From assembly GCA_029881215.1 (NCBI GenBank), contig JAOUNA010000001.1:13195-77194 (forward strand): a stretch of DNA of 64,000 nt, read 5' to 3'. A model generated the notes under the pieces. That model was not told the DNA's origin. It did not search any database and saw nothing but the letters and a program-made list of their open reading frames with translations. This document shows, piece after piece, positions 10,861 to 61,801 of this stretch. Origin of the DNA: Myxococcales bacterium. Its GTDB lineage: Bacteria; Myxococcota_A; UBA9160; SMWR01. The translations under genes were made by a program, and so were the position numbers. The first letter of the stretch is position 1. Each line of letters starts with the position of its first letter.

Positions 10861-10873
10861 ACGGGCGCGGCGC

Positions 10874-12259: not shown

Positions 12260-12310
12260 GCTGCGGCGTCTTCCGTGCGGATCACACGCACCCCCCGAGG
12301 CGCAATCCTA

Positions 12311-12360
12311 ACCGAAACATCGCCCCGGCGTGCGCACGTCGCGCGGCGCACGCCGGGGCG
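12311..12360 (-). terminator. Intrinsic-terminator-like hairpin downstream of the ALS-like/ALDH operon
   Basis: Perfect 15-bp GC-rich inverted repeat cgccccggcgtgcgc / gcgcacgccggggcg (12321-12360) with a 10-nt loop, 13 nt after the ALDH stop. On the minus strand it is followed by AUGUUUCGGUU. Confidence 0.55.
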
Positions 12361-12373
12361 CATGGCGACCCGG

Positions 12374-13810
<1,437 letters not shown>

Positions 13811-13852
13811 GACTTTCTCCTACTGTCTTGCGTCGGGATCGACGGGCATGGG

Positions 13853-18600: not shown

Positions 18601-19310
18601 GGATCGCGCGCCAGCTCTGCCGCGGAAACCCCCTGCTCGAGGAGCGCCGCGAGCTCGCGCTCGAGCTCCAGGGGCCCGAACCCGTCGGCGGCCAGCCGCA
18701 GGGCCGCGGCATCGCCGGGCAACGCGTACGCCTCGCGCAGGCGCCGCTCGACGACGTCGCGCACGACCGCGGTCTGCTCGCGACCCTCCGCGTCCACCTC
18801 GAGCCGCGGATGCACGCCGGCATCGAGCGGATGGGCCGCGAGCAGGCGCCGGCAGTAGGCGTGGATCGTCTGCACGATCAGGTGGTCGAGCGCGCCGCGC
18901 AGCGCGCGCGCCCGCGCGGCGCGCAGCCCGGGCTCGGGCAGGGCCTCGTCGTCCGCACCGATGGGCAGCGACCCCGCCTCGAGCAGGCGCAGCGCGGCGT
19001 CGACCCGCGTGGCCATCTCGGCCGCGGCCGCCTCGGTGAAGGTGATGGCCACGACGCGACCGAGGACCCGCTCCGCGATGCGCTCCGGCGCGGAAGACGC
19101 CACACCCCCGCGCTCGCCCAGCTGCGCCGCCGCGCGCTGCCAGCCCGGCCCCAGGCTCCAGGCCAGAATGCGCGCGACCAGCGTCGCCGTCTTGCCCGTG
19201 CCGGCGCCCGCTTCGAGCACGAGGGGCGCGCGGAACTCCCGCTGCGCGAGGCTGCGTGCCTCGGCGTCGCGCTGCCTCAGGATCTCCGCGCTGTCGGTGC
19301 CAGCGCTCAT
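15687..19310 (-). CDS. addA: AddA-type UvrD-family helicase with C-terminal RecB-like nuclease
   Basis: ATG at 19310 (MSAGTDSAEIL). Walker A LEAGAGTGKTATLV and DEFQDTD (motif II). C-terminal nuclease motif GSIDLVYRD...VVVDYKTD. ATGA overlap with addB. Confidence 0.8.
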   Translation of the reverse strand: MSAGTDSAEILRQRDAEARSLAQREFRAPLVLEAGAGTGKTATLVARILAWSLGPGWQRAAAQLGERGGVASSAPERIAERVLGRVVAITFTEAAAAEMATRVDAALRLLEAGSLPIGADDEALPEPGLRAARARALRGALDHLIVQTIHAYCRRLLAAHPLDAGVHPRLEVDAEGREQTAVVRDVVERRLREAYALPGDAAALRLAADGFGPLELERELAALLEQGVSAAELARDPFEPARVRAAWERLRAALDAFRAVAGERLRSVRRGDVALEVAEALERAHAELAQPPQNAAALDARAGELRALWSERARERLRKWSRDDLTASERQAIEPGVDCFCAASAPLAAALDHWTGLDVPRFEAAQRVLGELLAEVEETLRRRGSASFSRLLSAAADLVTRSASVAARVRRGIDQLLVDEFQDTDRRQCAIVGALALEGPEEERPGLFLVGDPKQSIYGWRSADLSAYEAFVARVGDAGGAVHPLAVNFRSVPAILDEVERVVAPVMQRAPGLQPEFQALVACPALANASRDAGFAPIEYWISAEVEDGAARQTSSAQASALEARALAADLRALHAEQGMPWQEIAILFRSRGDWDLYLAALREAGIPFAVQGDRSHYRRREIIDAAALVRCVLDPNDHLALLTLLRSSAVGVPDAALLPLWSIGLPALFGALGAVDAQAQRTLHEGLPEVLRALPEDVPGLERVRGWEQNLLHAAEAIAALRDAFERDAPDVFVERLRSTLLLEASEAARFLGAWRVANLERFFRMLAEELALGADTGSVLRRLRSAVAEEEPAEEGQPRDLTPDAVRVLTLHGAKGLDFDCVYLMQLHRASGSRAARQCEAREHDGQLELRLLGAASLGWDLAQRARERVAEAEHVRTLYVGMTRARKRLVLAGLWPDFQTRSSERNHVTLLGARRVPPPDLPQLFADCVGQGAAALDTCAARWRFPALDAARAAPPARTAPEAPDLERVRADAEALHRARAQAEARMRRPLLATASAEAHAAPASERPPGAAALADGLCARLAGSAVHRVLECFDLDAEPAAELARQRAGLALLLRPLAPAARLDEVVREAQERLDRLARGHLLATLRALRDHIVARELPVLLAAQPDDEPLALFSGSIDLVYRDPESGAFVVVDYKTDRVADDAELAARTRSYARQGAVYQRAVAAALGLDALPRFELWYLSADRRVDASAPAAAPAAPSDRS

Positions 19311-22300
19311 GACTCGGCCCTGGCCAGATTCCAGATGGCGAGCGCGCTGCGCTCGATCGGCGCGCGATCGGGCTCGGAGGCCACGCGCTCGAGCCAGGCC
19401 AGCAGGCGTGCGCGCGCGCCCGAGTCGCCGCGCAGGCAGGCCTCCCGCACCTCGCAGCTCCGACACGCCTGCGGCTCCTCCCCCCGCTCCCCGGGCAGGG
19501 CAAGGCGCGGCACGAAGCTGCCCCGATCCCAGGCCTCGAGCAGCGTGCCCACGGCGCGCGCGAAGGGCGCCTGCCATTCCGGGTCCGAGGTCACCTCGAG
19601 CACGCGCACTTCTGCGCGAAGCTCGGGACGCAGAAAGACGTAGCGCCCCTGCGCGGCGGCGCCGCCGCGCAGCGCGTACGCCACGGCCTGGAGTGCCTCG
19701 CCGCGCGCCACTTGCCTGTGCAGCGCCGCCGCTCGGGCCGCCGCGCGCACCTGCTCGACGAGCGGCCTGCCCGTCTTGTAATCCGTGAAGCGCAGCGCCG
19801 AGCCGACGCGATCGACGCGATCGGCCTTGAAGCAGAGCGTGCGCGCGCTGCCCGAGCCGTCGGCCACCGTCACCGACTCCACGACCTCGGCGCCCACGAC
19901 GGGCACGCCATCCGCTGCGGACTGCCAATCGCAGGCGCGGGCGACCTCGAGGTAGGCGCGCGCGCGCAGCGCGAGCGCGCGCGCGTATCCGGCGAGTGCG
20001 ATGCCGCGTTCCCGCACCTCGCGCGCGGCGCAGTCCGCGAGAATGCGCTCGAGCTCGGCGTGCGACGGCCAGCGCGCGGGCTGGATGGGGCGCGCTTCGA
20101 GCGCCGCGTCCGCCGCGCGCTCGGCGCGGGCCGTGCCCGCGGCGATCGTCTCGAGCACCGCGTGCACCACGTTGCCGACGGCGAGGGGATCGGCGCCGGA
20201 GGGCAGCGCGCCGAGCGCGTCGGGCGAAGGCTCGACGCGCAGCAGACGCATGACGAAGGCCTGCCACGGACAGCGCGCCGTGCGCTCCAGCGTCGTGACG
20301 AAGAGCGCCGCACGGCGCGGATCGGTCGGGCCGCGCAGCGCACCGACCAGACCGAGATAGGGCCCGGGCGCCGCGCGCTGCGCCGCCGGCGCGTCGAGCT
20401 CGCGCAGCACCGCGCAGCGCCCGCGCGCCAGCGCCTCGGCGCTCGCCCGATCCAGAGCCGGCGCGGGCAGCGCCTCGAAAGCCAGCGACAGGGCAGCCTC
20501 GAAGGCCTGCACGGCTCCGGAGGGCCCGATGCGCAGCGCGTGCTCCTGGGCGGGGCGCAGCGCGTCGTCCACGGCGCCGCGGCTCCAGGGGGACACGACC
20601 GGTGGCGCGAGCTCCACTGCGCCGAGATTCCCAGCGCCGAGCAGCCGCTCGACCAGGGGCGACGGCGCGCACGCGCGCCCGTCCTCGTCGGCGGCGTGCC
20701 ACGAGAACGTGACCTCGCCGCTCGACGCAGCGAGCTGCGCGAAGAGCTCGCGCTCCTCATCCACCGCGTCACGTTTCACGGGCAGCTCGGGCAGCACATC
20801 GCGCAACGCGCGACGAACATCGTCGGCCAGCAGCGGATCCTCGACGATGCTGCGCGGGAACACCCCGCGGTTCATGCCGATCACGAAGAGGGCATCGAAG
20901 CTGCGCGCACGCGCCTCCATCACGCTGAGCACCTGCACGCCGCCGCCCTGCCCTCCGAGCGGCGCCCGCCCGCAGTCCTCCAGCGCGCGCCTCACCAGCA
21001 GCAGGAACTCCTCGCGGTCCATCTCGAGCGCCAGCGGAAGCGGCGCGTCCTCGGCGAGCAACACGCGCTCGAGATCGTCGCGGCCGGGGCAATCCGTCCG
21101 CCAGCCGAGATCCGTGTCGACGAGATCCCGCAGGCGGGCCAGGTGTGCGGCGAGCGGCGCGACCTGCGGCCAGCCTTGCCAGCGATCGCGCAGTGACGCC
21201 GCCGCGCGACAGGCGCGGGCGAGCGCCGACGCCGAGAGCGTGCGCCGCACGGCACGCAGCGGCTCGCCGGCGGCGGCGGGCTCGAATCCGCGGCGGGCCC
21301 GCAGGCTCACGTCGCGCCCGGGCAGATCGAGCGCGGCGACGTCGGCTAGCTGCGCGGCCCCGAGCTTGTGCAGCGCCTCGCGCAGATCCGCGCGCTCGAC
21401 GCGCGTGGGCGACCACGGCTCTCCGCGGGCGGGCGGCGCGGGCGCGAAACGCGACACGGCGTCGAGCCACAGCTCGGCGCTCGCACGCGCGCCCCGTTCG
21501 ATCAGCGCGAGGAGTGCCGCGAGGCGCCGGCCCGCGCTGCCGACGGGTCCGGTGGCGGCGATCCCGGACCACGGAACGCCGAGGCGCGCCAGGTGCAGGC
21601 GCAGCGGCAGGGCGAACGGGGCGAGCTCGCGCGCCACGATGCCGATTCGCTCGGGGCAGGCACCGCCATCGAGCAGCCGGCGGAGCCGCAAGGCCACGGC
21701 GCGCACCTCCGCGTGGGGTCCCGGGGCTTCGATCCACGTGAAGCGCGCTGCGGCGGGCGCGGGGAGGTCGCGCGCCTCGATGCCGCCGCACGCTGCGGCG
21801 ACGCGTTCGCGAAAGCGCGCCCCGTAGAGACCCTCCGGATCGCCCGGCGCGAGCGGCGCCGCGGGGGCCAGCAGCACCCGGGCATCGCGCAGACGCACCA
21901 GCGTCTCGATCAGATCGGCCTGCACGCCGGTGGCATCCGCGAAGCCGTGCACGAACACCGCACGCGCCGGGAGTGCCCGATCCGGCTCGGCCTCGAGACG
22001 CAGGCGCGCGCGCACGAGGGCGCGCGAACCGTGATCGATCGCCCCCGCGTCGAGGGCCCGGGCGGTGCGCGCGGCCACGCGCAGCAGCGCGAAGGCGCGG
22101 TCCGCTTCCGCACCGGACACGCCGCACGCGCCGAGACACGCCTCCAGCGCCTCGCCGTGCGCCGCTTCGAAGCCCGCGTCGAGCAGATCGTCGATGCTGG
22201 CGACCACGGCGCCGTAGCCGTCGACGAGCGGGTCGAGATGCTGGGCGAGCGCGGGCTCGGCCCGCGCGTGGCGCCGCACGAGCAGCGGGTAGGCGGCCTG

Positions 22301-22657
22301 CAGCGGCGGCCCCTCGGCGCCGGGCTCCGCGATGCTGCGCGCGAGTGTGTCGAGTGTCTGCACCACGACGCCGAGCAGGCCACCGCCCAGCTGCCGGACC
22401 AGCAGCGAAGCGACGTGCAGGCGCAGACTGTTCGACGGCACCACGATGCGGACGGGTCGGGCGAGCAGACGCGGATCGGCGCGCGCCGACGCCGCCAGCG
22501 CCGCAACCTCTCGGCACAGCAGCGCATCCAGCCCCGGCGCGCCCTGCGCTCGCTGTGCTCGCCGCACTCCCGACACCCCCCGCACGACCTCCCGCGTCGT
22601 CCGCGCGGCAGGGCGCGAGCATCGCACGGATTCGTGACAAAGGAGGTCACGCGTCAA
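19307..22657 (-). CDS. addB: AddB-type PD-(D/E)XK nuclease subunit
   Basis: Lies upstream of and overlaps addA. No Walker A seen. C-terminal nuclease motif FKADRVDRV...FTDYKTGRP and iron-staple-like C-x2-C-x5-C (CRSCEVREAC). The start is uncertain: TTG at 22657 is the longest option, and GTG near 22576 is also possible. Confidence 0.7.
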   Translation of the reverse strand: MTRDLLCHESVRCSRPAARTTREVVRGVSGVRRAQRAQGAPGLDALLCREVAALAASARADPRLLARPVRIVVPSNSLRLHVASLLVRQLGGGLLGVVVQTLDTLARSIAEPGAEGPPLQAAYPLLVRRHARAEPALAQHLDPLVDGYGAVVASIDDLLDAGFEAAHGEALEACLGACGVSGAEADRAFALLRVAARTARALDAGAIDHGSRALVRARLRLEAEPDRALPARAVFVHGFADATGVQADLIETLVRLRDARVLLAPAAPLAPGDPEGLYGARFRERVAAACGGIEARDLPAPAAARFTWIEAPGPHAEVRAVALRLRRLLDGGACPERIGIVARELAPFALPLRLHLARLGVPWSGIAATGPVGSAGRRLAALLALIERGARASAELWLDAVSRFAPAPPARGEPWSPTRVERADLREALHKLGAAQLADVAALDLPGRDVSLRARRGFEPAAAGEPLRAVRRTLSASALARACRAAASLRDRWQGWPQVAPLAAHLARLRDLVDTDLGWRTDCPGRDDLERVLLAEDAPLPLALEMDREEFLLLVRRALEDCGRAPLGGQGGGVQVLSVMEARARSFDALFVIGMNRGVFPRSIVEDPLLADDVRRALRDVLPELPVKRDAVDEERELFAQLAASSGEVTFSWHAADEDGRACAPSPLVERLLGAGNLGAVELAPPVVSPWSRGAVDDALRPAQEHALRIGPSGAVQAFEAALSLAFEALPAPALDRASAEALARGRCAVLRELDAPAAQRAAPGPYLGLVGALRGPTDPRRAALFVTTLERTARCPWQAFVMRLLRVEPSPDALGALPSGADPLAVGNVVHAVLETIAAGTARAERAADAALEARPIQPARWPSHAELERILADCAAREVRERGIALAGYARALALRARAYLEVARACDWQSAADGVPVVGAEVVESVTVADGSGSARTLCFKADRVDRVGSALRFTDYKTGRPLVEQVRAAARAAALHRQVARGEALQAVAYALRGGAAAQGRYVFLRPELRAEVRVLEVTSDPEWQAPFARAVGTLLEAWDRGSFVPRLALPGERGEEPQACRSCEVREACLRGDSGARARLLAWLERVASEPDRAPIERSALAIWNLARAES

Positions 22658-25541: not shown

Positions 25542-26690
25542 TCAGGCCAGGCGGCGCGCGACGCGGCGCACCGCCTCGAGCGCTCGCTCGGGCGGCACGG
25601 ACGTGTAGCAGAGACGCACCCACCCCTCGTATGCCGCACCGCAGCTCGGACCCGGGGCCAGCGCAACGCCGTCGGTGACGCAGTCTTCGAGAAAGCCCCA
25701 GATGCCGCGCGCGTCGAGCTTCTCGCGCACGTCGATGAAGTGGAACATCGAGCCTTCGGGCGGCGGCAGACCGAGCAGCTCGGCCGTCGCGTCGCCCACC
25801 TGCTGGTAGCTCTGGCGCGCGCGCGCGATCCATCCCCGGCCGTCGCGCAGCGCGCGGCGCGCCGCGATCTGTCCGGCGGTGGGCGCGGAGTACGCCGTGT
25901 GCGTCGAGATCTTCAGAGCCTGCGCGGTCACGTCGGGCGGCGCCACCAGATAGCCCGTGCGGTTGCCCGCCATGCCGAATGACTTCGAGAAGGAGAAGAC
26001 CGTGACGGTGCGCTCCGGCGCAAAGCGGGCGAGCGAGACGTGCGCGCCGCGATACACGTAGTCTTCGTACACCTCGTCCGAGATCAGCCAGAGATTCTCG
26101 CGCGCCGCCCAGTCAGCCAGCGCCGCGAGCCAGGCCTCCGGCAGCACGCGGCCCGTCGGATTCGAGGGGCTCGAGACGTAGAGGGCGACGCTGCGCGGAC
26201 CGAGCGCCTCGCGCACCGCCGCGAGCGCGTCGTCCGCGCTCGCCACCCGGTCGTAGAACGGAATCTCCACGGGTGTCGCGCGCAGCGCCGCAACCACGCC
26301 GGGGATGAGGGGCCAGTACGGCGCGAGGATGAGCACTTCGTCGCCGGGGCTGGCGATGGCGCCGACCGCGGCGCCGAGGGCGCCGGTCGCACCGGCGGTG
26401 ACCAGCACGGACGCGCGCTCGCAGGGGAGCCCGTTGCGCGCGCGCACCTTCTCGACGATGGCGTCCACGAGCGCGGGCACGCCGCGCGCCTCGCAGTAGC
26501 GGTGCAGGCCCGGGTAGTCGACCTCGCGCAGATCCTCCATGCGCCCGCCTTCGAAGGGCTCCATCCAGGTGTCGCCCACGTGCAGCGGACAGACGTCTTC
26601 GGGAATGTCCCCGACGCGCTTCGCCGTGGGCGAGAAGACCGCGCTCTGCATGGCGTTCGTCTCGGGTGCGAAGTGGGGGGAGCGGGGCAT
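25542..26690 (-). CDS. Class I/II pyridoxal-phosphate aminotransferase
   Basis: VLVTAGATGAL, SSPSNPTG and PLP-lysine motif FSFSKSFGMAGNRTGY. GAGG ribosome-binding site. Lies 8 nt after the upstream SDR gene. Confidence 0.85.
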   Translation of the reverse strand: MPRSPHFAPETNAMQSAVFSPTAKRVGDIPEDVCPLHVGDTWMEPFEGGRMEDLREVDYPGLHRYCEARGVPALVDAIVEKVRARNGLPCERASVLVTAGATGALGAAVGAIASPGDEVLILAPYWPLIPGVVAALRATPVEIPFYDRVASADDALAAVREALGPRSVALYVSSPSNPTGRVLPEAWLAALADWAARENLWLISDEVYEDYVYRGAHVSLARFAPERTVTVFSFSKSFGMAGNRTGYLVAPPDVTAQALKISTHTAYSAPTAGQIAARRALRDGRGWIARARQSYQQVGDATAELLGLPPPEGSMFHFIDVREKLDARGIWGFLEDCVTDGVALAPGPSCGAAYEGWVRLCYTSVPPERALEAVRRVARRLA

Positions 26691-28505: not shown

Positions 28506-29063
28506 ATGCCGAGGATGCGCGATTCGATCTCGAAGCGAGTCAATGCGTCGGATGCAGCAGAGTCACCCGGCGTCGACGCGGTGCGGGTCTTTCTGGGAGC
28601 CGCGCTGGCCGTGGTCGACGCGAGGGAGTTCGAGCGCGCTCCGGCGCGCAAGCTGTCGACCTGGCTCTTCTCCCTCGGCGCGAGCGACGCCCTGGCGCGC
28701 CGGCTCGGCCTGGCGGGTCGAGCGGCGACGTCCCTCGGCGTGGATGTGTTCCGCGCCTTCTACGCGCTCGATCCGGTGAGTGCGGCGACGGTGGTCGGCC
28801 GCTTGAATCATCTCGCAACCGACGCGCGCTGGTGCCCGGCACGCGAAGCCGGACGCGCGGCCATGGACGACTGGCTCACCGGTGTTCGGCAGGACGCGCA
28901 CGAACGGCTGCGCGATCTGATCGCGGCGCCGGCCGCGGCCGAGGCCGCGCACTTCGCCGCCGGGCTGACCGGTATCGAGGGTGATGCCGCACCGCGCGCA
29001 CCGCGCCAGCGCGACGTGCCGCTGGGACGCCGCGCGGTGGCGTCACTCGCCGCACCGCGCTGA
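28506..29063 (+). CDS. Hypothetical protein
   Basis: 185-aa ORF with GC3-rich codon pattern and non-junk composition. No family recognised. The 3' end overlaps the convergent GT9 gene by 21 nt. Confidence 0.45.
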   Translation: MPRMRDSISKRVNASDAAESPGVDAVRVFLGAALAVVDAREFERAPARKLSTWLFSLGASDALARRLGLAGRAATSLGVDVFRAFYALDPVSAATVVGRLNHLATDARWCPAREAGRAAMDDWLTGVRQDAHERLRDLIAAPAAAEAAHFAAGLTGIEGDAAPRAPRQRDVPLGRRAVASLAAPR

Positions 29064-35686: not shown

Positions 35687-36709
35687 TCAGAGTCTCCGGC
35701 TCGCGCGGTGCAGCAGGAGCAGCGCCGCGATGCCCGCGGCGAAGAGCGCCACGCGGCCGGGCTCCGGCACCTGCAGCGTGAGGATGCCGATGTGGCCCGT
35801 GTGGTCTTGCCAGCCGGGGCCGATCCAGTGGGTGAGCGCGGGCGTCACGAGCTGCAGGTTGCGCACGCCGCCGGGTGTGACCGTGTCGTAGCCCGCGCGG
35901 TGCAGGATCGTGGTGTAGATGCCTTCCCGAGCGTAGAGCGTCACCGAGCCGGTGGTCCAAGGCGTACCGGAGCCGCGCAACTGCACCTTGCTCTTCATGC
36001 TGTTCACGTGGTTGGTGTAGGTGTTGACTGTGAGGTGCGGATTGAGCCAGTTCGTCGGCTTGCTCGTCCTGTATGCGGTGGGCTCGGCATAGGGCACGCG
36101 CCCGAGCGCGCGAATCATGTCCCAGCTTCCCGTGCCCACGTAGGTGCCGGCATAGCCCGTAAACTCGACGCGCGCGCCGAGCTGACCCAGCAAGCCCATG
36201 GCGCCACCGAAGGCGTTCACACCCTCGTGAATGACCCACGTCCCCGCCTGCTTTCCCACGCCCGTCTTGGTCTTCTGACCGAGACCCGCGGCGGGGCCTC
36301 CACCGGCGAAGAATGTCGCCGCGGCGTTCACGAACGTCGCATACGTCACAGCTACGTAATGAGGCTCGCTGTAGGTACCCCATGAGCCCGTCGCGGTGAC
36401 GCCGAACGCCGCCTCTGGCAGCGCGATGGATGCGGGCGATCCGCTGCCCACGCCGAGCGAGCCCGATCCCGTGGCGGGAGCGCCGATCGAGAAGGCGGAA
36501 GGTTCGCAAGAGTAGGCGTAGCAGCGATGTCCCAACGGCCACGCTGTGAAGCGACTCGCGGTGTAGGGCCAGACGAAGCCGCTGGTCACGTCGTTGCCGA
36601 AGGCGTGCATGATGAACGACGCTTCGAAGAGCGCGGGGCCCGCGGAGACCTGCGTGGTGCTCGCCAGAAGTCCAGCCGCGAGCGCCATGCATCGCGCGTG
36701 CAGCTTCAT
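35687..36709 (-). CDS. Secreted PEP-CTERM protein, unknown domain (paralog 2)
   Basis: GGAGGAG ribosome-binding site plus ATG at 36709. Signal peptide ..TTQVSA. C-terminal VPEPGRVALFAAGIAALLLLHRASRRL. Collinear similarity to paralog 1. Confidence 0.8.
   Translation of the reverse strand: MKLHARCMALAAGLLASTTQVSAGPALFEASFIMHAFGNDVTSGFVWPYTASRFTAWPLGHRCYAYSCEPSAFSIGAPATGSGSLGVGSGSPASIALPEAAFGVTATGSWGTYSEPHYVAVTYATFVNAAATFFAGGGPAAGLGQKTKTGVGKQAGTWVIHEGVNAFGGAMGLLGQLGARVEFTGYAGTYVGTGSWDMIRALGRVPYAEPTAYRTSKPTNWLNPHLTVNTYTNHVNSMKSKVQLRGSGTPWTTGSVTLYAREGIYTTILHRAGYDTVTPGGVRNLQLVTPALTHWIGPGWQDHTGHIGILTLQVPEPGRVALFAAGIAALLLLHRASRRL
35745..35985. repeat. Direct repeat copy B (3' end of PEP-CTERM paralog 2)
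   Basis: Partner of 34631-34870, with about 1.1 kb spacing in the same orientation. Confidence 0.85.
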
Positions 36710-36817
36710 GGCATCTCCTCCCTGGGGTGCGTGCGCCGAGCTTTCCTCGCGCAGCGCATCGGCAACGAGCCTAACACGAATGCACGGCAGGCTGTGCGGT
36801 CGCGTTGCTCGGATCTA

Positions 36818-36843
36818 CAAGAGGGAGTGTTCACTCCCTCTTG
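36818..36843 (-). terminator. Terminator-like hairpin after the chaC-trmH-GATase operon
   Basis: caagagggagtg-tt-cactccctcttg, perfect 12-nt inverted arms, 17 nt downstream of the GATase stop. No clear U-tract. Confidence 0.4.
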
Positions 36844-36859
36844 CGCGCGACTGCGCGCG

Positions 36860-37576
36860 TCAGCCGCGCAGCAGCGCCGCGAAGCGCTGGAGCAGGCGCG
36901 GACCCGCGGGGGCCTCGCGTACCTCGCGCGCGAGCTGCTCGGGATCGAGGCCCTCATCGCGCAGCAGGTCGGCGCGCGCGTCGCAGTAGCCGAGCATCAC
37001 CGCCGCGTCGAACTCGGGGTGGAACTGCACGCCCCAGGCGCGCGCGCCGACGGCGAACGCCTGATTCGCATCGTGCGCGTTCTCCGCCAGTCGCCGCGCG
37101 CCGGGCGGCAGCTCGAGCACGCTCTCCAGGTGGCTCTGCTGCGCGGCGATCGGCCCGTCGAGCACGCCGAAGAGCGCGTCGCGCTGCGCATCGGGCAGCG
37201 GGCGCAGCGTCGCGGTGCCCATCTCGCGGCCGCGCGGGTTCGGTCCGACGCGCCCGCCCAAGGCGTGGGCGAGCAGCTGGTGTCCGTAGCAGATGCCGAG
37301 CACCGGCCTGCCGGCAGCCACCGCGCGCGCGAGCCACGCGGCGCTGCGCTCGCTCCACGCCAGGCGCGCGCTCACCATCTCGGCCGAGCCCGTCAGCACC
37401 ACGGCCGCCGGCGCGCCCGGGTCGGGCAGAGTCTCTCCGAGATAGGGCGCCACCACGTCCACGGCCGCGCGCGCGAGCCCCATGCCCTCGGCGATCCAGT
37501 CCTCGAAGTCACCGGCGCGGCGCGCACTCGCCTCGGGGAGCGCAGCGCCCAGCTTCACGATGAGGGGTCGCGTCAC
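36860..37576 (-). CDS. Class I glutamine amidotransferase (GuaA-N-like, stand-alone)
   Basis: GTG at 37576 overlaps the trmH-family stop (GTGA). GDFEDWI, nucleophile GICYGHQLLA and VQFHPEF. Confidence 0.8.
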   Translation of the reverse strand: MTRPLIVKLGAALPEASARRAGDFEDWIAEGMGLARAAVDVVAPYLGETLPDPGAPAAVVLTGSAEMVSARLAWSERSAAWLARAVAAGRPVLGICYGHQLLAHALGGRVGPNPRGREMGTATLRPLPDAQRDALFGVLDGPIAAQQSHLESVLELPPGARRLAENAHDANQAFAVGARAWGVQFHPEFDAAVMLGYCDARADLLRDEGLDPEQLAREVREAPAGPRLLQRFAALLRG

Positions 37577-38427
37577 GACGGCTCCTGCCACGCGGGGCAC
37601 GGCGCGCGCGGCTCGGGCGACTGCGGGGCAACGTGATGGAATGCGATGCCGGCCGCGGTCGCCACGTTGAGCGAGTCGATGCCGGGCGCCATGGGAATCG
37701 TGAGCGCCAGGTCGGCCTCGGCGCGCGCGGCGGCCGAGAGTCCACCCTGCTCCGCGCCGAGCAGCCACGCCACGCGCTCGGGCAGTGGCCCGAGCGCCGC
37801 GAGCGGGCGTTCCCGACGCGACGCGCACAGCGCCAGCACGCGAAATCCGGCGGCGCGCAGGCGGCGCAGCGCGGGCGCGAGCTCGGGAGTGCGCGCGAAC
37901 GGCACGCACAGCACGGCGCCCATCGAGACGCGCAGCGCCTTGCGATACAGGGGATCCGCGCAGCGCGGCGTGAGCAGCACGGCGTCCACGCCGAAGGCCA
38001 GCGCGTTGCGGAACACCCCGCCGACGTTGTCGGGGTTGCTGACGTCCTCGAGCACCGCGATCCGGCGCGGCGGCGGCGCGGGCGATGCGAGCAGCGCATC
38101 GAGCGAGAGGGCCGGCCCGCGTTCGCCGACGGCGAGGCAGCCGCGGTGCATCGGATAGCCGACGATCTGGTCCATCAGCGCCTGGCTCGCCAGGTAGACG
38201 GGCGTCTCGGCATCGAGCCGCGCGAGCGCGCGCTCGATGCCGCGCAGCGCGGCGCGGGTCACGAAGACCGAGCGCGTGCGGTAGCGCGGCGCGTCGATCA
38301 GACGCGCGACGTTGAGCCGCCCCTCGACCAGGAACACGTCCGACGCGCTGCGCAGCGCCGCGTCGCGCAGGTTGCGGTAGAGCGCCACGCGCGGATCGTC
38401 GAGCTGCGCGACGGGCTCGACGCGCAC
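37573..38427 (-). CDS. TrmH/SpoU family RNA 2'-O-methyltransferase
   Basis: GTG at 38427. LDDPRVALYRNLRD N-terminus, VLEDVSNPDNVGGVFRNA, and IPM.PGIDSLNVATAAGIAF (SPOUT knot motifs). Confidence 0.8.
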   Translation of the reverse strand: MRVEPVAQLDDPRVALYRNLRDAALRSASDVFLVEGRLNVARLIDAPRYRTRSVFVTRAALRGIERALARLDAETPVYLASQALMDQIVGYPMHRGCLAVGERGPALSLDALLASPAPPPRRIAVLEDVSNPDNVGGVFRNALAFGVDAVLLTPRCADPLYRKALRVSMGAVLCVPFARTPELAPALRRLRAAGFRVLALCASRRERPLAALGPLPERVAWLLGAEQGGLSAAARAEADLALTIPMAPGIDSLNVATAAGIAFHHVAPQSPEPRAPCPAWQEPS

Positions 38428-38428
38428 G

Positions 38429-38968
38429 TCACCCGACCTCTGCCGAGAGCCGCGCCGCCACGCCGAAGACGTGCGCGTCGCGCACGGCGAGCGCGCGCAG
38501 CGCCGCGGCCAGCTCGAGCACATAGGCGGCGTTCGAGCCGCTGCGGCCGGACGCGCGCCGCACCTGGTCCGCGATGGCCGCCAGCGGCGCCGGGCCGAGA
38601 AAGTTCGGATTGTGCGCGTGGGCGATGTAGGTCAGCGCCGGCGCCAGAGCCTGCGCCGAGTCGGCAAAGCCCACGTCGACCGGGCAGCGCTCGAAGCCCC
38701 CGCTCTCGCGCGCGTCGAGCCGGGCCAGCACCGCGTCCCAGACGCCGTCCGCCACCCGGTACGCCACGCCCCAGCAGCGGGCCGCGCGCCGCGGCACGAG
38801 CGTCGCGACCCGGCCGGGCGCGTCCGGCGCGCCGCGGTGATCCGGCGAGCCCTGCCACAGGCGCCTCGCAAGGCCGCGCACGCAGGCGGCGCGCTTCTCG
38901 AGGTACGCAAAGTCGGGGCGCCAGATGAGCGACCCGTAGCCGAAAATCCAGCGCGCGCGCGCCTGCAT
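38429..38968 (-). CDS. chaC: ChaC-family glutathione-specific gamma-glutamylcyclotransferase
   Basis: WIFGYGSLIWRPDF, PGRVATL and CWGVAYRV. The stop lies 1 nt before the trmH-family start. Confidence 0.8.
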   Translation of the reverse strand: MQARARWIFGYGSLIWRPDFAYLEKRAACVRGLARRLWQGSPDHRGAPDAPGRVATLVPRRAARCWGVAYRVADGVWDAVLARLDARESGGFERCPVDVGFADSAQALAPALTYIAHAHNPNFLGPAPLAAIADQVRRASGRSGSNAAYVLELAAALRALAVRDAHVFGVAARLSAEVG

Positions 38969-40376: not shown

Positions 40377-40414
40377 GGGTGGAGCTGCAACATAGGCCGA
40401 AACTCTATGATTTT

Positions 40415-40426
40415 GAGAATATTCTC
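40415..40426. promoter_or_regulatory. Perfect 12-bp palindrome GAGAATATTCTC in the AEC/ahcY divergent intergenic region
   Basis: Read directly. It lies 7 nt upstream of a TTGACA hexamer (40433-40438) that faces ahcY. No convincing -10 was found. Confidence 0.3.
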
Positions 40427-40506
40427 GAATGGTTGACAGAACGATGCAATTGAAACACTTTATCCGCATAAACAGATAGACCAACCATCTTCACGGAGCT
40501 TCGCCC

Positions 40507-41958
<1,452 letters not shown>

Positions 41959-42063
41959 GCCCGGATCCGCGCCGGCGCGCTCTCGCGCATTGGATCGCCC
42001 CGGCGAAAGGCGCATATTCACGGGCCGACGCGAAGCCGGGCAACGAGAACAGGAGCGGCTCGA

Positions 42064-44904
42064 ATGGCGAGCGCCAGCGCGACGCCTCGTCCCCGCCGGC
42101 GCCGCTACGTCGCGGCGGTGGGACCTCGGCTCGGCAAGCTCCTGGCCGTCGTCTTCGCGCTCTTCTCGATCCTGGCCGTGAACTCGTTCTACCTGGCGAG
42201 CGTGACCCTGCTGGGCGTTCGCTTCCAGAACTGGTTCTACCTGGTCATGTTCGGCCTGCACCTGCTGCTCGGCCTGGCGCTGATCGGCCCGGTGCTGATC
42301 TTCGGCGCGCTCCACATCGCGAACGCCTGGAGCCGGCCGAACCGGCGCGCCATCCGGGCGGGTCTGGCTCTCTTCGCCACGGCGAATCTCGTCTTCTTGA
42401 GCGGGATCGTGCTGACGCGCGTGGATCTCGGCGGGTTGCGCTTCGAGGTGAATCAGCCCGCCGCGCGCTCCGTCGCCTACTGGGCCCACGTGAGCGCGCC
42501 GCTCGTCGCGGCGTGGCTCTTCGTGCTGCACCGCCTGGCCGGCCGCCGCATCCGGTGGCGCGTGGGCGCGTCCTGGGCGGCGCTGGCGGCGGCCTTCGCC
42601 GGCGGCATGGGGCTGCTGCACGCGCAGGATCCGCGCGCCTGGAACCTCGCCGGACCGAAGTCCGGGGAGAAGTACTTCTTCCCCTCCCTGGCGCGCACCT
42701 CGACGGGCAACTTCATTCCGGCGGCCGTGCTCCAGAACGACGACTACTGCCGCGAGTGTCACACGGACATCCACGACGGCTGGACCCACAGCGCCCACCG
42801 CCTGAGCTCGTTCAACAATCCGCCGTACCTGTTCAGCGTGAAGGAGACGCGCCGCGCGATGATGGCGCGCGACGGCGACGTGCGAGCGTCGCGTTTCTGC
42901 GCCGGCTGTCACGACCCCGTCCCCTTCTTCAGCGGCGCCTTCGACGATCCCCGCTTCGACGATCCCGAGTTCGATCTGGCGAGCGATGCCACGGCCCAGG
43001 CCGGCATCACCTGCAGCGTCTGTCACAGCATCGCGCACATCAACAGCGTGCGGGGCAACGCGGACTACACCATCGACGAGCCGGTGCACTATCCCTTCGC
43101 GTTCAGCGAGCAGCCGGCGCTGCGCTGGATCAATCGCCAGCTCGTGAAGGCCAAGCCCGAATTCCACAAGGCCACCTTCCTGAAGCCGCTGCACCGCAGC
43201 ACCGAGTTCTGCGGCACCTGCCACAAGGTGCATCTGCCCCCCGAGCTGAACGCCTACAAGTGGCTGCGCGGCCAGAATCACTTCGACGCGTTCTGGCTGA
43301 GCGGCGTCTCCGGATTCGGCATCGCGAGCTTCTACTACCCGCCCAAGGCGGAGCCCAACTGTCAGGGCTGCCACATGCCCCCGATCGAGGCCTCCGCGGC
43401 GCCCAACTTCGGCGCCCGGGTCCGAGACGATTCCGGTCGGATCAAGACGCTCGACCACCAATTCCCCTCGGCGAACACAGCGCTTCCCTACCTGCTGCGC
43501 GACGCGCTGCCGCGCGCCGACGCGGCGATCGATGCGCACCGGCGCTTCCTCGAGGGCGTGATGCGCGTCGATCTCTTCGGCGTGAAGCGGGGCGGGCGGA
43601 TCGACGGCGAGCTCGTCGCGCCGCTGCGCCCGCAGGTGCCCGCCCTCGAGCCCGGCGAGAGCGTTCTGCTCGAGGCGGTGATCCGCACCGTCAAGATGGG
43701 CCACCTCTTCACCCAGGGAACCGCCGACTCGAACGAAGTGTGGATGGAAGTCCGCGTGACGAGCGGCGATCGCATCATCGGGCGCAGCGGCGGCCGCGAG
43801 CGCGCGGGCAACGCCGTGGATCCGTGGTCGCACTTCGTCAACGCCTTCGTCATCGATCGCGAGGGCAACCGCATCAACCGCCGCAATGCCCAGGACATCT
43901 TCGTCGCGCTCTACGACAACCAGATCCCGCCCGGCGCGGCGGATGTCGTGCACTACCGTCTCGATGTGCCTCCGGATGTCCGCGAGCCGATCACGGTGTC
44001 GGTCAAGCTCCAGTACCGCAAGTTCGACACCGAGTACATGCGGCTCGTCGAGAACGATCCCGACTTCCGCAACGATCTGCCGATCGTGACCCTGGCCGAG
44101 GACCGCGTCGCCTTCCCGATCGCCGGCACGGCGCAGCAGCCCTCCAATCCAGAGTCTCCGATCGAGCGCTGGCAGCGCTGGAACGACTACGGGATCGCGC
44201 TGCTGCGCAAGGGTCAGCTCGGGGAGCTGCGGCAGGCGGCGGCAGCGTTCGAGGAGGTCGACCGGCTCGGACGCCCCGACGGCCCGCTGAACCTGGCGCG
44301 CGTGTACATCAAGGAGGGGCGCGTGCAGGTGGATGCGCCCCGGGCCCTCGAGCGCGCCGCGCACTTCCAGCCGCCGGCAAACGAGTGGTCGCTGCTGTGG
44401 TTCGGTGCCGGCGTCGCAGCGTCGAACGGAGACTTCGATCGGGCGATTGCGAGTCTCGAGCGCATCGTGCAGGGCGGCTTCGCGCAGGCGCAGGGCCGCG
44501 GCTTCGACTTCTCGAAGGACTACACGGTCCTAGATGCGCTGGCGAGCGCGTGCTATCAGCGCGCTCTCCAGGCGCACGGGGACGCGCGACAGCGCGACCT
44601 GCGCGCGGCGCGCGACGCATTCCTGCAAGCCCTCTCCTACGACCCCGAGAACCTGGCCGCGCACTGGGGCCTGAAGCTCGTGTACACCGATCTCGGAGAC
44701 GCAGAGAAGGCGCGCGAGCACGCGGCGCTCCACGCCTACTACAAGCCCGACGACAATGCCCGAGACCGCGCGGTCGCGCGCGCCCGGCGCACGTATCCGG
44801 CGGCCGACCGGGCCAGCGAAGCGGTGGTGATCTACGACCTGCAGCGCCCGGACGCCTACGGCAGCAGCCCGGAGCAGACACGGGGAGCGCGCCGTGCCGA
44901 CTGA
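42064..44904 (+). CDS. Membrane-anchored pentaheme c-type cytochrome with C-terminal TPR-like region
   Basis: AGGAG ribosome-binding site. About 5 N-terminal transmembrane helices. Five CXXCH motifs: CRECH, CAGCH, CSVCH, CGTCH and CQGCH (nt 42748-43374). The C-terminal helical repeats are TPR-like. Confidence 0.8.
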   Translation: MASASATPRPRRRRYVAAVGPRLGKLLAVVFALFSILAVNSFYLASVTLLGVRFQNWFYLVMFGLHLLLGLALIGPVLIFGALHIANAWSRPNRRAIRAGLALFATANLVFLSGIVLTRVDLGGLRFEVNQPAARSVAYWAHVSAPLVAAWLFVLHRLAGRRIRWRVGASWAALAAAFAGGMGLLHAQDPRAWNLAGPKSGEKYFFPSLARTSTGNFIPAAVLQNDDYCRECHTDIHDGWTHSAHRLSSFNNPPYLFSVKETRRAMMARDGDVRASRFCAGCHDPVPFFSGAFDDPRFDDPEFDLASDATAQAGITCSVCHSIAHINSVRGNADYTIDEPVHYPFAFSEQPALRWINRQLVKAKPEFHKATFLKPLHRSTEFCGTCHKVHLPPELNAYKWLRGQNHFDAFWLSGVSGFGIASFYYPPKAEPNCQGCHMPPIEASAAPNFGARVRDDSGRIKTLDHQFPSANTALPYLLRDALPRADAAIDAHRRFLEGVMRVDLFGVKRGGRIDGELVAPLRPQVPALEPGESVLLEAVIRTVKMGHLFTQGTADSNEVWMEVRVTSGDRIIGRSGGRERAGNAVDPWSHFVNAFVIDREGNRINRRNAQDIFVALYDNQIPPGAADVVHYRLDVPPDVREPITVSVKLQYRKFDTEYMRLVENDPDFRNDLPIVTLAEDRVAFPIAGTAQQPSNPESPIERWQRWNDYGIALLRKGQLGELRQAAAAFEEVDRLGRPDGPLNLARVYIKEGRVQVDAPRALERAAHFQPPANEWSLLWFGAGVAASNGDFDRAIASLERIVQGGFAQAQGRGFDFSKDYTVLDALASACYQRALQAHGDARQRDLRAARDAFLQALSYDPENLAAHWGLKLVYTDLGDAEKAREHAALHAYYKPDDNARDRAVARARRTYPAADRASEAVVIYDLQRPDAYGSSPEQTRGARRAD

Positions 44905-46753
44905 GCCGAAGCGGGACGACGAGCTCGAGCCGGGCGCAGAGGAAGAATTCGTCCCCGAAGACGACCGGATCATCGGGCACGCCTTCCGCTGGTCGCTCGC
45001 CGCCGCCGCGCTCGTCGCGGGGATCGCGGCGCTGGTGCTCTTCGGCTCCCGCGAGCAGCCGGAGGCTCCCGCGCTCGTCGCGCGCGGCCCGATCGAGCTG
45101 CCGCGGCAGCTCGACCAGAGCCAGGCCGCACTGCCGCTGGTGCCCTTCCGCGACGTGACGCGCGCCGCCGGCATCGACTTCGTGCACGAGAACGGCGCGC
45201 GCGGCGAGAAGCTGCTGCCGGAGACGATGGGGGCGGGCGTCGCGTTCCTCGACTACGACGCGGACGGCGACCAGGATCTGCTCTTCGTGAACTCGCGCCG
45301 CTGGTCGGCCGGCAGCGCAGCCGACGCGACCCCGGCGCTCTACCGCAACGACGGCAGCGGTCGCTTCGAGAACGTCACGGCGGGCTCGGGGCTCGACGTG
45401 AGCTTCTACGGCCAGGGCGTCGCCGTCGGCGACTACGACAACGACGGCGCCGCGGATGTGTTCGTCTCGGCGCTCGGATCGAACCACCTGTTCCGCAACG
45501 CGGGCGGCCGATTCGAAGAGGTGACCGCGCGGGCGGGCGTGGCCGGCGACGCTCGCGCGTGGAGCACCAGCGCCGGGTTCTTTGATGTCGACAACGACGG
45601 CGATCTCGATCTCTTCGTGTGCAACTACGTGGCCTGGTCGCGCGAGGTCGACCTCGAGCTCCACTTCACCCTCAACGGCGTCGACCGCGCCTACGGACCG
45701 CCGAAGCTGTACGAGGGAACGCACTCCTATCTGTATCGCAACGACGGGGATGGCCGCTTCAGCGACATCTCGGCGCAGGCCGGCATCCAGATCGACAACC
45801 CGGCCACGGGGCGCCCGATGGGGAAGGCGCTGGCGCTCACCTTCGCGGACGCCGACCGCGACGGCGATCTCGACGTCTTCGTCGCCAATGACACGGTGCA
45901 GAACTTCGTCTTTCGCAACGACGGCGGCGGCGCGTTCAGCGAGCTCGGTGCGGAGAGCGGCTTCGCCTTCGACAACAACGGCGCAGCGACCGGCGCCATG
46001 GGAATCGACGCCGCCGACTTCGACAACCGCGGAGCGCTGGCGGTGGGCGTGGGCAACTTCGCCAACGAGACCTCGTCGTTCTACGTGCAGCAGAACGATC
46101 CCTGGCAGTTCGTGGACGTGGCGAATGCCTACGGCATCGGCTCACCGAGCCGGCTCAAGCTGAGCTTCGGGCTGTTCTTCTTCGACTACGATCTCGACGG
46201 ACGGCTCGACCTGCTGCAGTCCAACGGCCACCTCGAGGACGGGATCAACGAGATCCAGCCGAGCCAGACCTACCGGCAAGCCGCCCAGCTCTTCTGGAAC
46301 TGCGGCACCGAGCAGCGCGGCTGCTTCGCCGCGGTCGCCGACGAGCGGCTCGGCGACCTGGCCCGCCCCATCGTCGGCCGCGGCGCGGCCTACGGCGACA
46401 TCGACGGCGACGGAGACCTCGACGTGGTGCTCACGCAGACGGGCGGCCCGCCGCTGCTGATCCGCAACGACCAGGATCTCGGCCATCACTGGCTGCGGGT
46501 GCGGCTCGTCGGCCGGCGCAGCAACCGGGACGCGATCGGCGCCGTGATCGAGCTGCGCGCGGGCGGCACGACCCAGCGCCGCCAGGTGATGCCGACGCGC
46601 AGCTACCTCTCCCAGGTGGAGATGCCCGTGACCTTCGGGCTGGGCGCGGCGGGAAGCATCGAGTGGCTGCGCGTCGTCTGGCCCGACGGCTCGACGCAGG
46701 AAATCGCGCCGGGGGCCATCGACACCTCGATCGCGATCGTGCAGAGCAGCTAG
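44894..46753 (+). CDS. CRTAC1-like protein: N-terminal anchor, seven FG-GAP/VCBS repeats, UnbV/ASPIC-like C-terminus
   Basis: GTG at 44894 with a GGGGAG ribosome-binding site, overlapping the cytochrome gene by 11 nt. Seven D-x-D-x-D-G repeats (DYDADGDQD, DYDNDGAAD, DVDNDGDLD and others). C-terminal NRDAIGAVIELR..SYLSQ..FGLG. Confidence 0.8.
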   Translation: MPTEPKRDDELEPGAEEEFVPEDDRIIGHAFRWSLAAAALVAGIAALVLFGSREQPEAPALVARGPIELPRQLDQSQAALPLVPFRDVTRAAGIDFVHENGARGEKLLPETMGAGVAFLDYDADGDQDLLFVNSRRWSAGSAADATPALYRNDGSGRFENVTAGSGLDVSFYGQGVAVGDYDNDGAADVFVSALGSNHLFRNAGGRFEEVTARAGVAGDARAWSTSAGFFDVDNDGDLDLFVCNYVAWSREVDLELHFTLNGVDRAYGPPKLYEGTHSYLYRNDGDGRFSDISAQAGIQIDNPATGRPMGKALALTFADADRDGDLDVFVANDTVQNFVFRNDGGGAFSELGAESGFAFDNNGAATGAMGIDAADFDNRGALAVGVGNFANETSSFYVQQNDPWQFVDVANAYGIGSPSRLKLSFGLFFFDYDLDGRLDLLQSNGHLEDGINEIQPSQTYRQAAQLFWNCGTEQRGCFAAVADERLGDLARPIVGRGAAYGDIDGDGDLDVVLTQTGGPPLLIRNDQDLGHHWLRVRLVGRRSNRDAIGAVIELRAGGTTQRRQVMPTRSYLSQVEMPVTFGLGAAGSIEWLRVVWPDGSTQEIAPGAIDTSIAIVQSS

Positions 46754-58004: not shown

Positions 58005-58108
58005 CTGAAATCATTGTTTAAATACTATATTGAGATGTAGTAATATAAAGCTAACTTTCCCACACATCGGCGCCGATGCCGGAGCCGATCCGCCAGCGGG
58101 GGCACTCC

Positions 58109-61801
<3,693 letters not shown>

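Follow-up and report, generated by a model that had tools for sequence, protein, structure and literature searches.

The locus examined here raises a question: do a multihaem cytochrome gene and the propeller gene that overlaps its end belong together, and, if so, what could such a pair do? Both genes lie in a 64-kb stretch of contig JAOUNA010000001.1 (Myxococcales bacterium, assembly GCA_029881215.1), which was analyzed as a whole and is referred to below as the window. The first open reading frame (ORF1; 42064-44904, forward strand, 946 aa as read by translation) begins with a transmembrane (TM) domain and continues with a pentahaem domain, an immunoglobulin (Ig)-like domain and tetratricopeptide repeats (TPRs), and the second (ORF2; 44894-46753, forward strand, 619 aa) encodes a bacterial CRTAC1-like protein. 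We found that the pair is a conserved, self-contained module and that the haem module of ORF1 belongs to the c552-type cap-plus-Ig fold family.

The first part of the question can be answered from the distribution of the two genes. Relatives of ORF1 are encoded in at least 597 GTDB species-level genomes; homolog clusters (at 90% identity) that are 62-83% identical to ORF1 across the full length number more than 6,500. The best 80 loci served as the locus set, which comprises, by record title, Planctomycetota (~37), Verrucomicrobiota (~17), Acidobacteriota (~13), Pseudomonadota (~7) and others. Pairing was scored in the 70 loci with at least 600 nt of sequence downstream of ORF1: an ortholog of ORF2 (50-66% identity, full length) follows directly on the same strand in 63 of them, in several phyla, and lies 2.2 kb from ORF1 in one more. 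When all flanking ORFs were clustered, no other family appeared in more than 5 of the 80 loci, and AhcY and Prc, the genes flanking the pair in this window, accompany the module in none of the 80. That ORF1 is so strictly paired with a single orthologous propeller (50-66% identity across phyla) favours a specific ORF1-ORF2 partnership. Moreover, both proteins are 50-65% identical between phyla, indicating strong selection on their function.

The reverse approach, in which metagenomes were scanned with ORF2, agrees with this result. Of the orthologs (at least 51% identity) whose upstream DNA was long enough to judge, 15 are preceded by ORF1 and 4-6 are not; one of the latter (L106) sits after a TPR-propeller fusion gene. 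ORF2 paralogs at 34-41% identity were found without ORF1. The same gene order, an ORF1-like gene and then a propeller gene, is present in two further clades, designated B (L104, L108) and C (L109-L111; Table 1), with 36-43% identity to ORF1 in the haem and Ig domains, 26-33% in the TPR and 44-50% between the propellers and ORF2. In clade B, the ORF1-like protein is 966-969 aa long and the propeller carries a lipoprotein-type signal (…IVGC, …LLAGC) in place of the TM anchor; in clade C (917 aa in L110), the gene that follows the propeller gene encodes an octahaem protein of 695 aa, in which eight CXXCH motifs are combined with HEAT and TPR_19 repeats. The initial annotation of this DNA, made from the sequence alone, had made conserved synteny a test of its proposal and knew of no assigned function for the pair. 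The synteny was found, and the second statement also stands: no NCBIfam family exceeds its curated cut-off for the pair, the source protein names are generic, and the literature search returned no published description of the pairing and no function assigned to either gene. The module was also seen on metagenome bins labelled 'Akkermansia muciniphila' and 'Bifidobacteriaceae' (L045, L069 and L079), labels that look unreliable for these contigs.

Another question is whether the reading frames themselves can be trusted, given that the G+C content of the window is ~70%. This high G+C content accounts for spurious, very long ORFs that run across ORF1 on both strands (Table 1). The frame named in the initial annotation is the real one, and both ORFs lie at the coordinates it gave; public assemblies with an identical protein call the same two genes, with an ORF1 of 946 aa, the same ORF2 start and the same 11-nt overlap, which here lies between the GTG at 44894 and the ORF1 stop codon (TGA, 44902-44904). 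Apparent ORF1-ORF2 'fusion' ORFs of 1,439-1,529 aa in two loci (L033 and L035) were rejected as high-GC frame artefacts. The GGGGAG site, the GTG start and the overlap, from which translational coupling had been proposed, are all borne out by the sequence. The overlap is, however, particular to this genome: elsewhere, the ORF2 match begins between -7 and 541 nt from the ORF1 stop (median ~30), so the overlap is real here and not general. The domain order proposed for ORF1 (membrane helices, CXXCH motifs, TPR-like tail) was likewise recovered, although an Ig-like sandwich of ~200 residues (~485-690) between the haems and the TPR had been overlooked. In ORF2, the N-terminal anchor and the UnbV/ASPIC-like end were correctly recognized, and the D-x-D-x-D-G repeats are present, but as six strict motifs (at residues 120, 180, 231, 319, 431 and 502) plus one degenerate blade (372-380) rather than seven.

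What kind of cytochrome is ORF1? Five colinear CXXCH motifs, at the nucleotides where they had been placed initially (Table 1), occupy an alpha-helical domain and are invariant across clades A-C. Since all six frames of the window contain only one other CXXCH, this cluster is not a product of chance. Cytochrome_C554, one of the multihaem Pfam families that had been put forward as candidates, matches residues 229-322. An AlphaFold2 (AF2) model of residues 1-700, built on a 112-sequence alignment (mean predicted local distance difference test score, pLDDT, 83.9), gave one outstanding match in Foldseek, the penta-haem cytochrome c552 of Thermochromatium tepidum (PDB 5ze8; E 1.4e-9, probability 1.0, target TM-score 0.63), the other matches being weak Ig-like sandwiches. 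When a profile built from residues 213-700 of clades A-C was searched against PDB sequences, 5ze8 was again the best match (E 1.4e-7), followed by cytochrome c554 (0.019) and MccSep (0.077). A full-length AF2 model on a 34-sequence alignment was of low confidence in the haem domain and led Foldseek to TPR proteins alone, both of which were remedied by the 112-sequence model of residues 1-700; in the PDB profile search with the full-length alignment, TPR matches dominated. Fold and profile searches agree, and the haem module of ORF1 is thereby placed in the c552-type family, in which an alpha-helical cap is followed by an Ig-like domain.

The characterized member of this fold type is MccSep (ExtKL; GSU2937-2936, PDB 9wt8), a multihaem selenoprotein polysulfide reductase of Geobacter sulfurreducens with a five-haem cap and an Ig-like stem, in which His and Cys239 are the ligands of haem 2 and selenocysteine (Sec) 325, contributed by the Ig domain, completes the polysulfide-reducing site (bioRxiv 10.1101/2025.11.18.688581). 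The Ig-like domain of ORF1 is confidently modelled (pLDDT mostly >90, with dips to ~66-69 at residues 601-620), and Pfam and NCBIfam scans of the isolated TM and Ig domains found no family. It bears a loop that is invariant in clades A, B and C, G546-H547-x-F-x-x-G552-T553-x-D555-S-N-E-x-W560, and the stem also holds H590. Exactly five non-motif periplasmic His residues are invariant over the three clades (H245, H368, H465, H547 and H590), while H342, H377, H390 and H406 are not conserved across them. Five such residues are enough for five bis-His haems, and the simplest reading of the conservation pattern is that ORF1 would carry five bis-His c haems. The stretch from haem motif 4 to haem motif 5, the site of Cys239 in MccSep, contains no His or Cys conserved in all clades; in ORF1 it includes an invariant S413-G-V415 loop. 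No conserved Cys was found in ORF1 beyond the CXXCH motifs, nor was any CXXCK motif.

The N-terminal domain raises a separate question, namely, whether it could carry haem b. As proposed initially, the first ~185 residues form five hydrophobic helices, which AF2 places at 21-50, 57-88, 94-117, 132-158 and 165-187 (pLDDT ~80-96 in the TM region), and four of the His residues lie at the predicted positions 66, 84, 142 and 156. The fifth His within residues 1-200, H186, is not conserved. Conservation of the four TM residues, on which the initial proposal depended, is high: they are invariant in the 34-sequence and 112-homolog alignments, and among 150 representatives (50% clustering), they are present in 105-137 of the 122-139 that cover each position. 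Clade B, whose TM domain is too diverged for tblastn, keeps all four with identical spacing (18 and 14 residues), and clade C retains H66 and H142 and has Lys at 84 and Arg at 156. In the model, helix 2 bears H66 and H84 and helix 4 bears H142 and H156; these helices are parallel, which puts H66/H142 near the periplasmic face and H84/H156 near the cytoplasmic face, and the partners of each proposed pair are at equal membrane depth. An N-in, C-out topology with a periplasmic haem c domain follows from the Arg/Lys-rich N-terminus and loops 85-97 and 157-166, and agrees with what haem c attachment requires. The joint loss of H84 and H156 in clade C is what would be expected if each pair ligates one haem, although it is seen in one lineage only. 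Such a pattern makes it well motivated to suggest two bis-His haem b sites, as a fit to the His residues rather than a family assignment. Residues 1-217 have no Pfam match even at E up to 10, and when the TM domain was searched against 1.84 billion representatives, 488 matches were returned, all belonging to this family (the full-length ones 920-1,220 aa long, the rest apparently fragments), with no link to known cytochrome b families.

Short conserved cytoplasmic motifs precede the first TM segment in both proteins: Y-V-P-x-V-G-P-x-L in ORF1 (residues 15-27) and D-D-x-I-I-G-x-A-F-x-x-S in ORF2 (residues 23-34), the latter kept at the >=80% level in 53 orthologs. They hint at a possible contact at the cytoplasmic face or a common cytoplasmic partner. 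Clade B has neither motif.

How might the two proteins be joined in the periplasm? The tail of ORF1, which had been described as TPR-like, exceeds the Pfam cut-off for TPR_19 at residues 843-905 (29.2 bits versus 25) and is modelled as a confident TPR superhelix over residues ~700-920, with Foldseek and PDB profile matches that include MamA, CTPR and IFIT. ORF2 matches FG-GAP_3 in five stretches (E 6.5e-36) and UnbV_ASPIC at residues 547-611, and 98 of its positions are at least 97% conserved among the 53 orthologs. Pocket-type residues among the conserved ones are E110, Y245, K311, N332-D333-T334, M369, N444-G445-H446 and R496, and those specific to the cytochrome-linked orthologs are P109, W137, W248, G268, K311, T334, R420, S457-Q458, W468 and R535. 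Near the module, many loci encode proteins of 1,100-1,300 aa in which an N-terminal TPR is fused to FG-GAP and, in most cases, UnbV_ASPIC (Table 1). These fusions provide domain-level Rosetta-stone evidence that TPRs and this propeller family may work together, and the TPR of ORF1 is probably a docking element for the propeller. Further CRTAC1-like copies, not fused, are also present at such loci, and the region tends toward a small family array.

Taken together, these features make it possible to suggest, with moderate confidence, that the pair is a self-contained quinone-linked b/c cytochrome with a TPR-docked propeller, acting as a quinol-driven periplasmic reductase. The N-in five-helix bundle would hold two bis-His b haems, one ligated by H66 and H142 near the periplasmic face and the other by H84 and H156 near the cytoplasmic face. 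Beyond helix 5, the polypeptide would continue in the periplasm as the pentahaem cap, the Ig-like stem and then the TPR superhelix, which would hold ORF2, a membrane-tethered, seven-bladed, calcium-type propeller with its UnbV domain. Electrons from the quinone pool would enter the b haems and pass to haem 1, ~40 residues past helix 5, and from there through haems 3 and 4 of a Y-shaped chain to its two branches, haems 2 and 5; haem 2 would adjoin the invariant Ig loop (G546-H547...T553...W560), and the electrons would end at a substrate or cofactor site shared with, or on, the propeller. The outward direction is suggested by comparison with MccSep, a reductase of the same fold type, with c552, for which a low potential is described, and with CbcL, discussed below, a menaquinol oxidase. 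Since clade C lacks H84 and H156 and still keeps the module, the cytoplasmic-side haem would be dispensable for the core function, so that any quinone site present in every clade would be expected close to the haem on the periplasmic side. The initial reading of the pair as a periplasmic redox module is thus supported, and it is refined by the c552/MccSep cap-plus-Ig fold and by the probable role of the TPR as a propeller dock.

Several observations weigh against this proposal. Six of the 70 loci have no propeller gene adjacent to ORF1. The TM domain matches no known cytochrome b family by Pfam, PDB profile or Foldseek, so the whole case for haem b is the His pattern, and a two-haem TM arrangement is equally typical of quinone-reducing enzymes such as formate dehydrogenase-N and hydrogenase. 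The alignment of the Ig loop to the Sec loop of MccSep is not significant on its own. In ORF2, E110, Y245, N332-D333, M369-G370, N444-G445-H446 and R496 are conserved also in paralogs without a cytochrome partner; as most pocket residues are thus common to unpartnered paralogs and the propeller has no conserved Cys and one conserved His, it bears no redox-cofactor signature. Specific homology between the TPR of ORF1 and those of the fusion proteins was also considered and rejected, the similarity being that of TPRs in general.

Could the electrons flow in the opposite direction? A periplasmic substrate would then be oxidized at or near the propeller, and electrons would pass via the c haems and then the b haems to quinone at the cytoplasmic side, in a proton-motive loop like that of formate dehydrogenase-N or hydrogenase. 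A membrane-spanning haem b pair, as predicted here, is a hallmark of such loops (FdnI, HyaC), and propellers are common as catalytic scaffolds in periplasmic dehydrogenases. The sole functionally characterized protein of the same fold type nevertheless works as a reductase, the closest structural relative is a low-potential cytochrome, and the ORF2 propeller lacks a pyrroloquinoline quinone, copper or other cofactor signature. In addition, the persistence of the remaining module in clade C, without the cytoplasmic-side His pair, means that transmembrane transfer is not essential to the core function. We regard this reversed flow as unlikely.

Catalysis might instead be located in ORF1 itself, at haem 2, by means of the Ig loop and a chemistry other than that of MccSep, with ORF2 as an accessory protein for substrate capture, stabilization or assembly. 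The invariance of the loop in three clades and its alignment with the Sec325-bearing loop of MccSep would fit such a role, as would the segment between haem motifs 4 and 5, which, having no all-clade His or Cys, leaves the distal ligand of haem 2 unassigned. That loop alignment is weak, however, the five invariant non-motif His residues suffice for five six-coordinate haems, and neither CXXCK, an extra Cys nor any other hallmark of a catalytic haem is present, which makes an enzymatic ORF1 improbable in our judgment.

Still less can be said for ORF1 as a generic inner-membrane electron outlet, comparable to CbcL, ImcH or CymA, that would feed soluble carriers or extracellular acceptors beside a structural or adhesive, non-redox ORF2. 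Its design does resemble that of CbcL, with a b domain (predicted here) fused to a multihaem c domain and no other cofactor subunit, and the gene cluster of PtdA, a c552 homolog, is porin-cytochrome-like (bioRxiv 10.1101/2023.11.21.568154). Beside the pair, though, conservation extends to no outer-membrane porin, periplasmic carrier or other cytochrome gene, and the strict pairing with one orthologous propeller across phyla points to a specific partnership; we consider a generic outlet very unlikely. A TM domain without haem, serving as an anchor, a sensor or a transporter-like unit for a tethered c-type cytochrome fed by another complex, would agree with the lack of any sequence or fold match to known cytochromes b, but it is most improbable, since four buried invariant His residues with clade-wide spacing and paired loss are hard to explain by anchoring.

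What might the pair represent more broadly? It is possible, and we offer it tentatively, that it constitutes a previously unrecognized, widespread class of respiratory or redox enzyme in which a dedicated quinone-linked b/c cytochrome works with a CRTAC1-type calcium propeller that binds the substrate or carries out the catalysis; in that case, the bacterial CRTAC1/ASPIC-UnbV family may originally have served chemistry coupled to electron transfer. New in these data are the pairing across phyla, the near-invariant TM His residues with their paired loss, the c552-type cap with its Ig domain and the TPR-propeller fusions nearby. Carriers of the module include abundant soil, sediment and marine heterotrophs (Planctomycetota, Acidobacteriota, Verrucomicrobiota). 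ORF1 would be the second, independently built b/c fusion cytochrome after CbcL and a membrane-anchored relative of the newly described c552/MccSep fold, giving that fold a built-in electron donor. The pair would also open a first route to the function of bacterial CRTAC1-like propellers, and its two genes would be a concrete target for genetics in cultured strains.

The positions of all features are collected in Table 1, together with some other features of the window. AhcY (S-adenosylhomocysteine hydrolase) lies directly upstream of ORF1 and, with the B12-dependent methionine synthase MetH, makes two methyl-cycle genes in the window. An AddAB-like helicase-nuclease pair (UvrD helicase and PD-(D/E)XK domains) occupies its most G+C-rich part. 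Two tRNA calls by ARAGORN, of the unusual length of 93-94 nt, are probably false positives, since the Rfam scan of the window at gathering thresholds found no tRNA or other RNA family. Long ORFs (369, 431 and 1,092 aa) in two regions matched no Pfam family at E 1e-5 to 1e-6 and could be either spurious or uncharacterized.

Table 1 Features of the ORF1-ORF2 module, of related loci and of the window (positions in the window unless preceded by a locus handle)
Feature	Position	Strand	Basis or remark
ORF1 ribosome-binding site GGAG	42052-42055	+	8 nt 5' of ATG, read from sequence
ORF1, 946 aa: 5-TM 4-His domain, pentahaem cap, Ig-like domain, TPR tail	42064-44904	+	
ORF1 motif Y-V-P-x-V-G-P-x-L, residues 15-27	42106-42144		Precedes first TM helix
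ORF1 N-in 5-TM domain, residues 1-190, predicted two-b-haem site	42064-42633	+	AF2 model, His conservation
ORF1 TM His codons	H66 42259-42261; H84 42313-42315; H142 42487-42489; H156 42529-42531	+	
ORF1 periplasmic alpha-helical pentahaem cap, residues ~215-480	42706-43503	+	CXXCH, Foldseek, profile, Pfam
ORF1 CXXCH motifs	42748-42762; 42898-42912; 43012-43026; 43210-43224; 43360-43374	+	
ORF1 Ig-like beta-sandwich 'stem', residues ~485-690	43516-44133	+	AF2 model
ORF1 invariant Ig loop, residues 546-560	43699-43743		Clades A, B and C
ORF1 C-terminal TPR superhelix, residues ~700-920	44161-44823	+	Pfam TPR_19, PDB profile and Foldseek matches
ORF2 ribosome-binding site GGGGAG	44882-44887	+	Within 3' end of ORF1
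ORF2, 619 aa, CRTAC1-like	44894-46753	+	Overlaps ORF1 by 11 nt
ORF2 motif D-D-x-I-I-G-x-A-F-x-x-S, residues 23-34	44960-44995		Precedes first TM segment
ORF2 single N-terminal membrane anchor, residues ~33-51	44990-45046	+	Hydropathy peak
ORF2 FG-GAP beta-propeller, residues ~85-530	45146-46483	+	Pfam, DxDxDG motifs, ortholog conservation
ORF2 UnbV_ASPIC C-terminal domain, residues 547-611	46532-46726	+	Pfam E 2.1e-18
Spurious long ORF across ORF1	40405-44364	-	
Spurious long ORF across ORF1	40872-45158	+	
TPR-propeller fusion beside module	L005:2376-5807		
TPR-propeller fusion beside module	L019:2337-5720		
TPR-propeller fusion beside module	L021:2397-5798		
TPR-propeller fusion beside module	L028:2050-5910		
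TPR-propeller fusion beside module	L007:2434-5808	-	
TPR-propeller fusion beside module	L106:30-3983		
TPR-propeller fusion beside module	L104:5326-9072		
Clade B pair	L104:951-5593		
Clade B pair	L108:1086-5779		
Clade C locus	L110:706-7590		
AhcY	40507-41958		
MetH	58076-61801		
AddAB-like helicase-nuclease pair	15687-22657	-	
tRNA-Pro(ggg) call	26311-26404		ARAGORN
tRNA-Ala(ggc) call	28677-28769		ARAGORN
Regions with long ORFs	36527-38928; 10583-13861		

How does the pair compare with known systems? Cytochrome c552 resembles ORF1 in that an alpha-helical domain with five c haems precedes an Ig-like domain, and the two have motifs in common: a heme-1 signature, C-x-x-C-H-x-D-[IV]-x-x-x-W-x-x-S-x-H, and C-Q-x-C-H-M-P at haem 5. 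Unlike ORF1, c552 is a soluble protein of ~435 residues, to which ORF1 adds the 5-TM 4-His domain, the TPR and a propeller-gene partner, and identity between the two is ~15%. In a published comparison of multihaem structures, c552 is shown beside MccSep (bioRxiv 10.1101/2025.11.18.688581), and PtdA is a third member of the c552-fold family (bioRxiv 10.1101/2023.11.21.568154).

MccSep has in common with ORF1 the cap and Ig stem, the heme-1 signature and, at haem 5, the C-Q-x-C-H-M of ORF1, and its Ig loop reaches haem 2; its proposed electron path enters at haem 1 and runs 1-3-4-2, with haem 5 as a second branch (bioRxiv 10.1101/2025.11.18.688581). In a colinear HMMER sub-alignment, G546-H547-L-F-T-Q-G552-T553 of ORF1 is aligned with G318-H319-S-I-P-D-G324-Sec325 of MccSep. 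Overall sequence similarity is marginal (E 0.077-0.12), and ORF1 scores 18.6 bits against NCBIfam NF040886 (cut-off 250). The invariant Thr553 stands at the position of Sec325, and the segment separating haem motifs 4 and 5 is free of Cys; with no conserved Cys outside the CXXCH motifs, a His/Cys haem and MccSep-type chemistry are excluded. Sec/Cys chemistry was considered for ORF1 and rejected for want of a conserved Cys or Sec, and ORF1 is not an MccSep-type enzyme. MccSep also differs in being a soluble homotetramer with an external electron donor.

The quinol dehydrogenases of the NapC/NirT/NrfH/CymA type have a single N-terminal TM helix and a tetrahaem domain. ORF1 differs from them in its five TM helices, five haems and fold, and has no Pfam match to those families. 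A closer parallel in architecture is CbcL of G. sulfurreducens, described as a menaquinol oxidase in which a diheme cytochrome b is fused to a nine-haem c domain (bioRxiv 10.1101/2022.08.31.506072). On that description, both proteins combine a His-containing TM domain (b-type in CbcL, predicted in ORF1) with a periplasmic multihaem c domain in one polypeptide, without iron-sulfur, flavin or molybdenum subunits. The TM domain of ORF1 comes first, whereas the mutation positions quoted for CbcL suggest that its b domain follows the c domain. CbcL has a b domain of the HydC/FdnI kind (PF01292), to which the TM domain of ORF1 could not be assigned, residues 1-217 having no Pfam match. CbcL further differs in its nine haems, as opposed to five of the c552 type, and in having no Ig domain, TPR or propeller partner.

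On the propeller side, human CRTAC1 (PDB 9etn) has the same order of an FG-GAP propeller and then UnbV_ASPIC as ORF2 (phmmer E 6.5e-14, ORF2 residues 290-601), and the motifs N-G-H446, G-A-M369-G and N-D-T334 of ORF2 are unmatched in this alignment. Vertebrate CRTAC1 has a C-terminal EGF-like calcium-binding domain; ORF2, in contrast, has an N-terminal membrane anchor, contains no EGF family in the Pfam scan and ends after UnbV_ASPIC. To our knowledge, no bacterial CRTAC1/ASPIC-UnbV protein has a known function, and the molecular function of vertebrate CRTAC1 is poorly understood. Finally, in the hydrazine-synthase-like clusters of non-anammox bacteria, a CRTAC1-family FG-GAP gene lies between haem c genes (PMC12758564). 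The cytochromes of these clusters differ from ORF1, being HZS alpha-like and beta-gamma-like, with no TM b-type domain and no TPR, and the clusters are a second, independent tie of the CRTAC1-type propeller family to c-type cytochromes.

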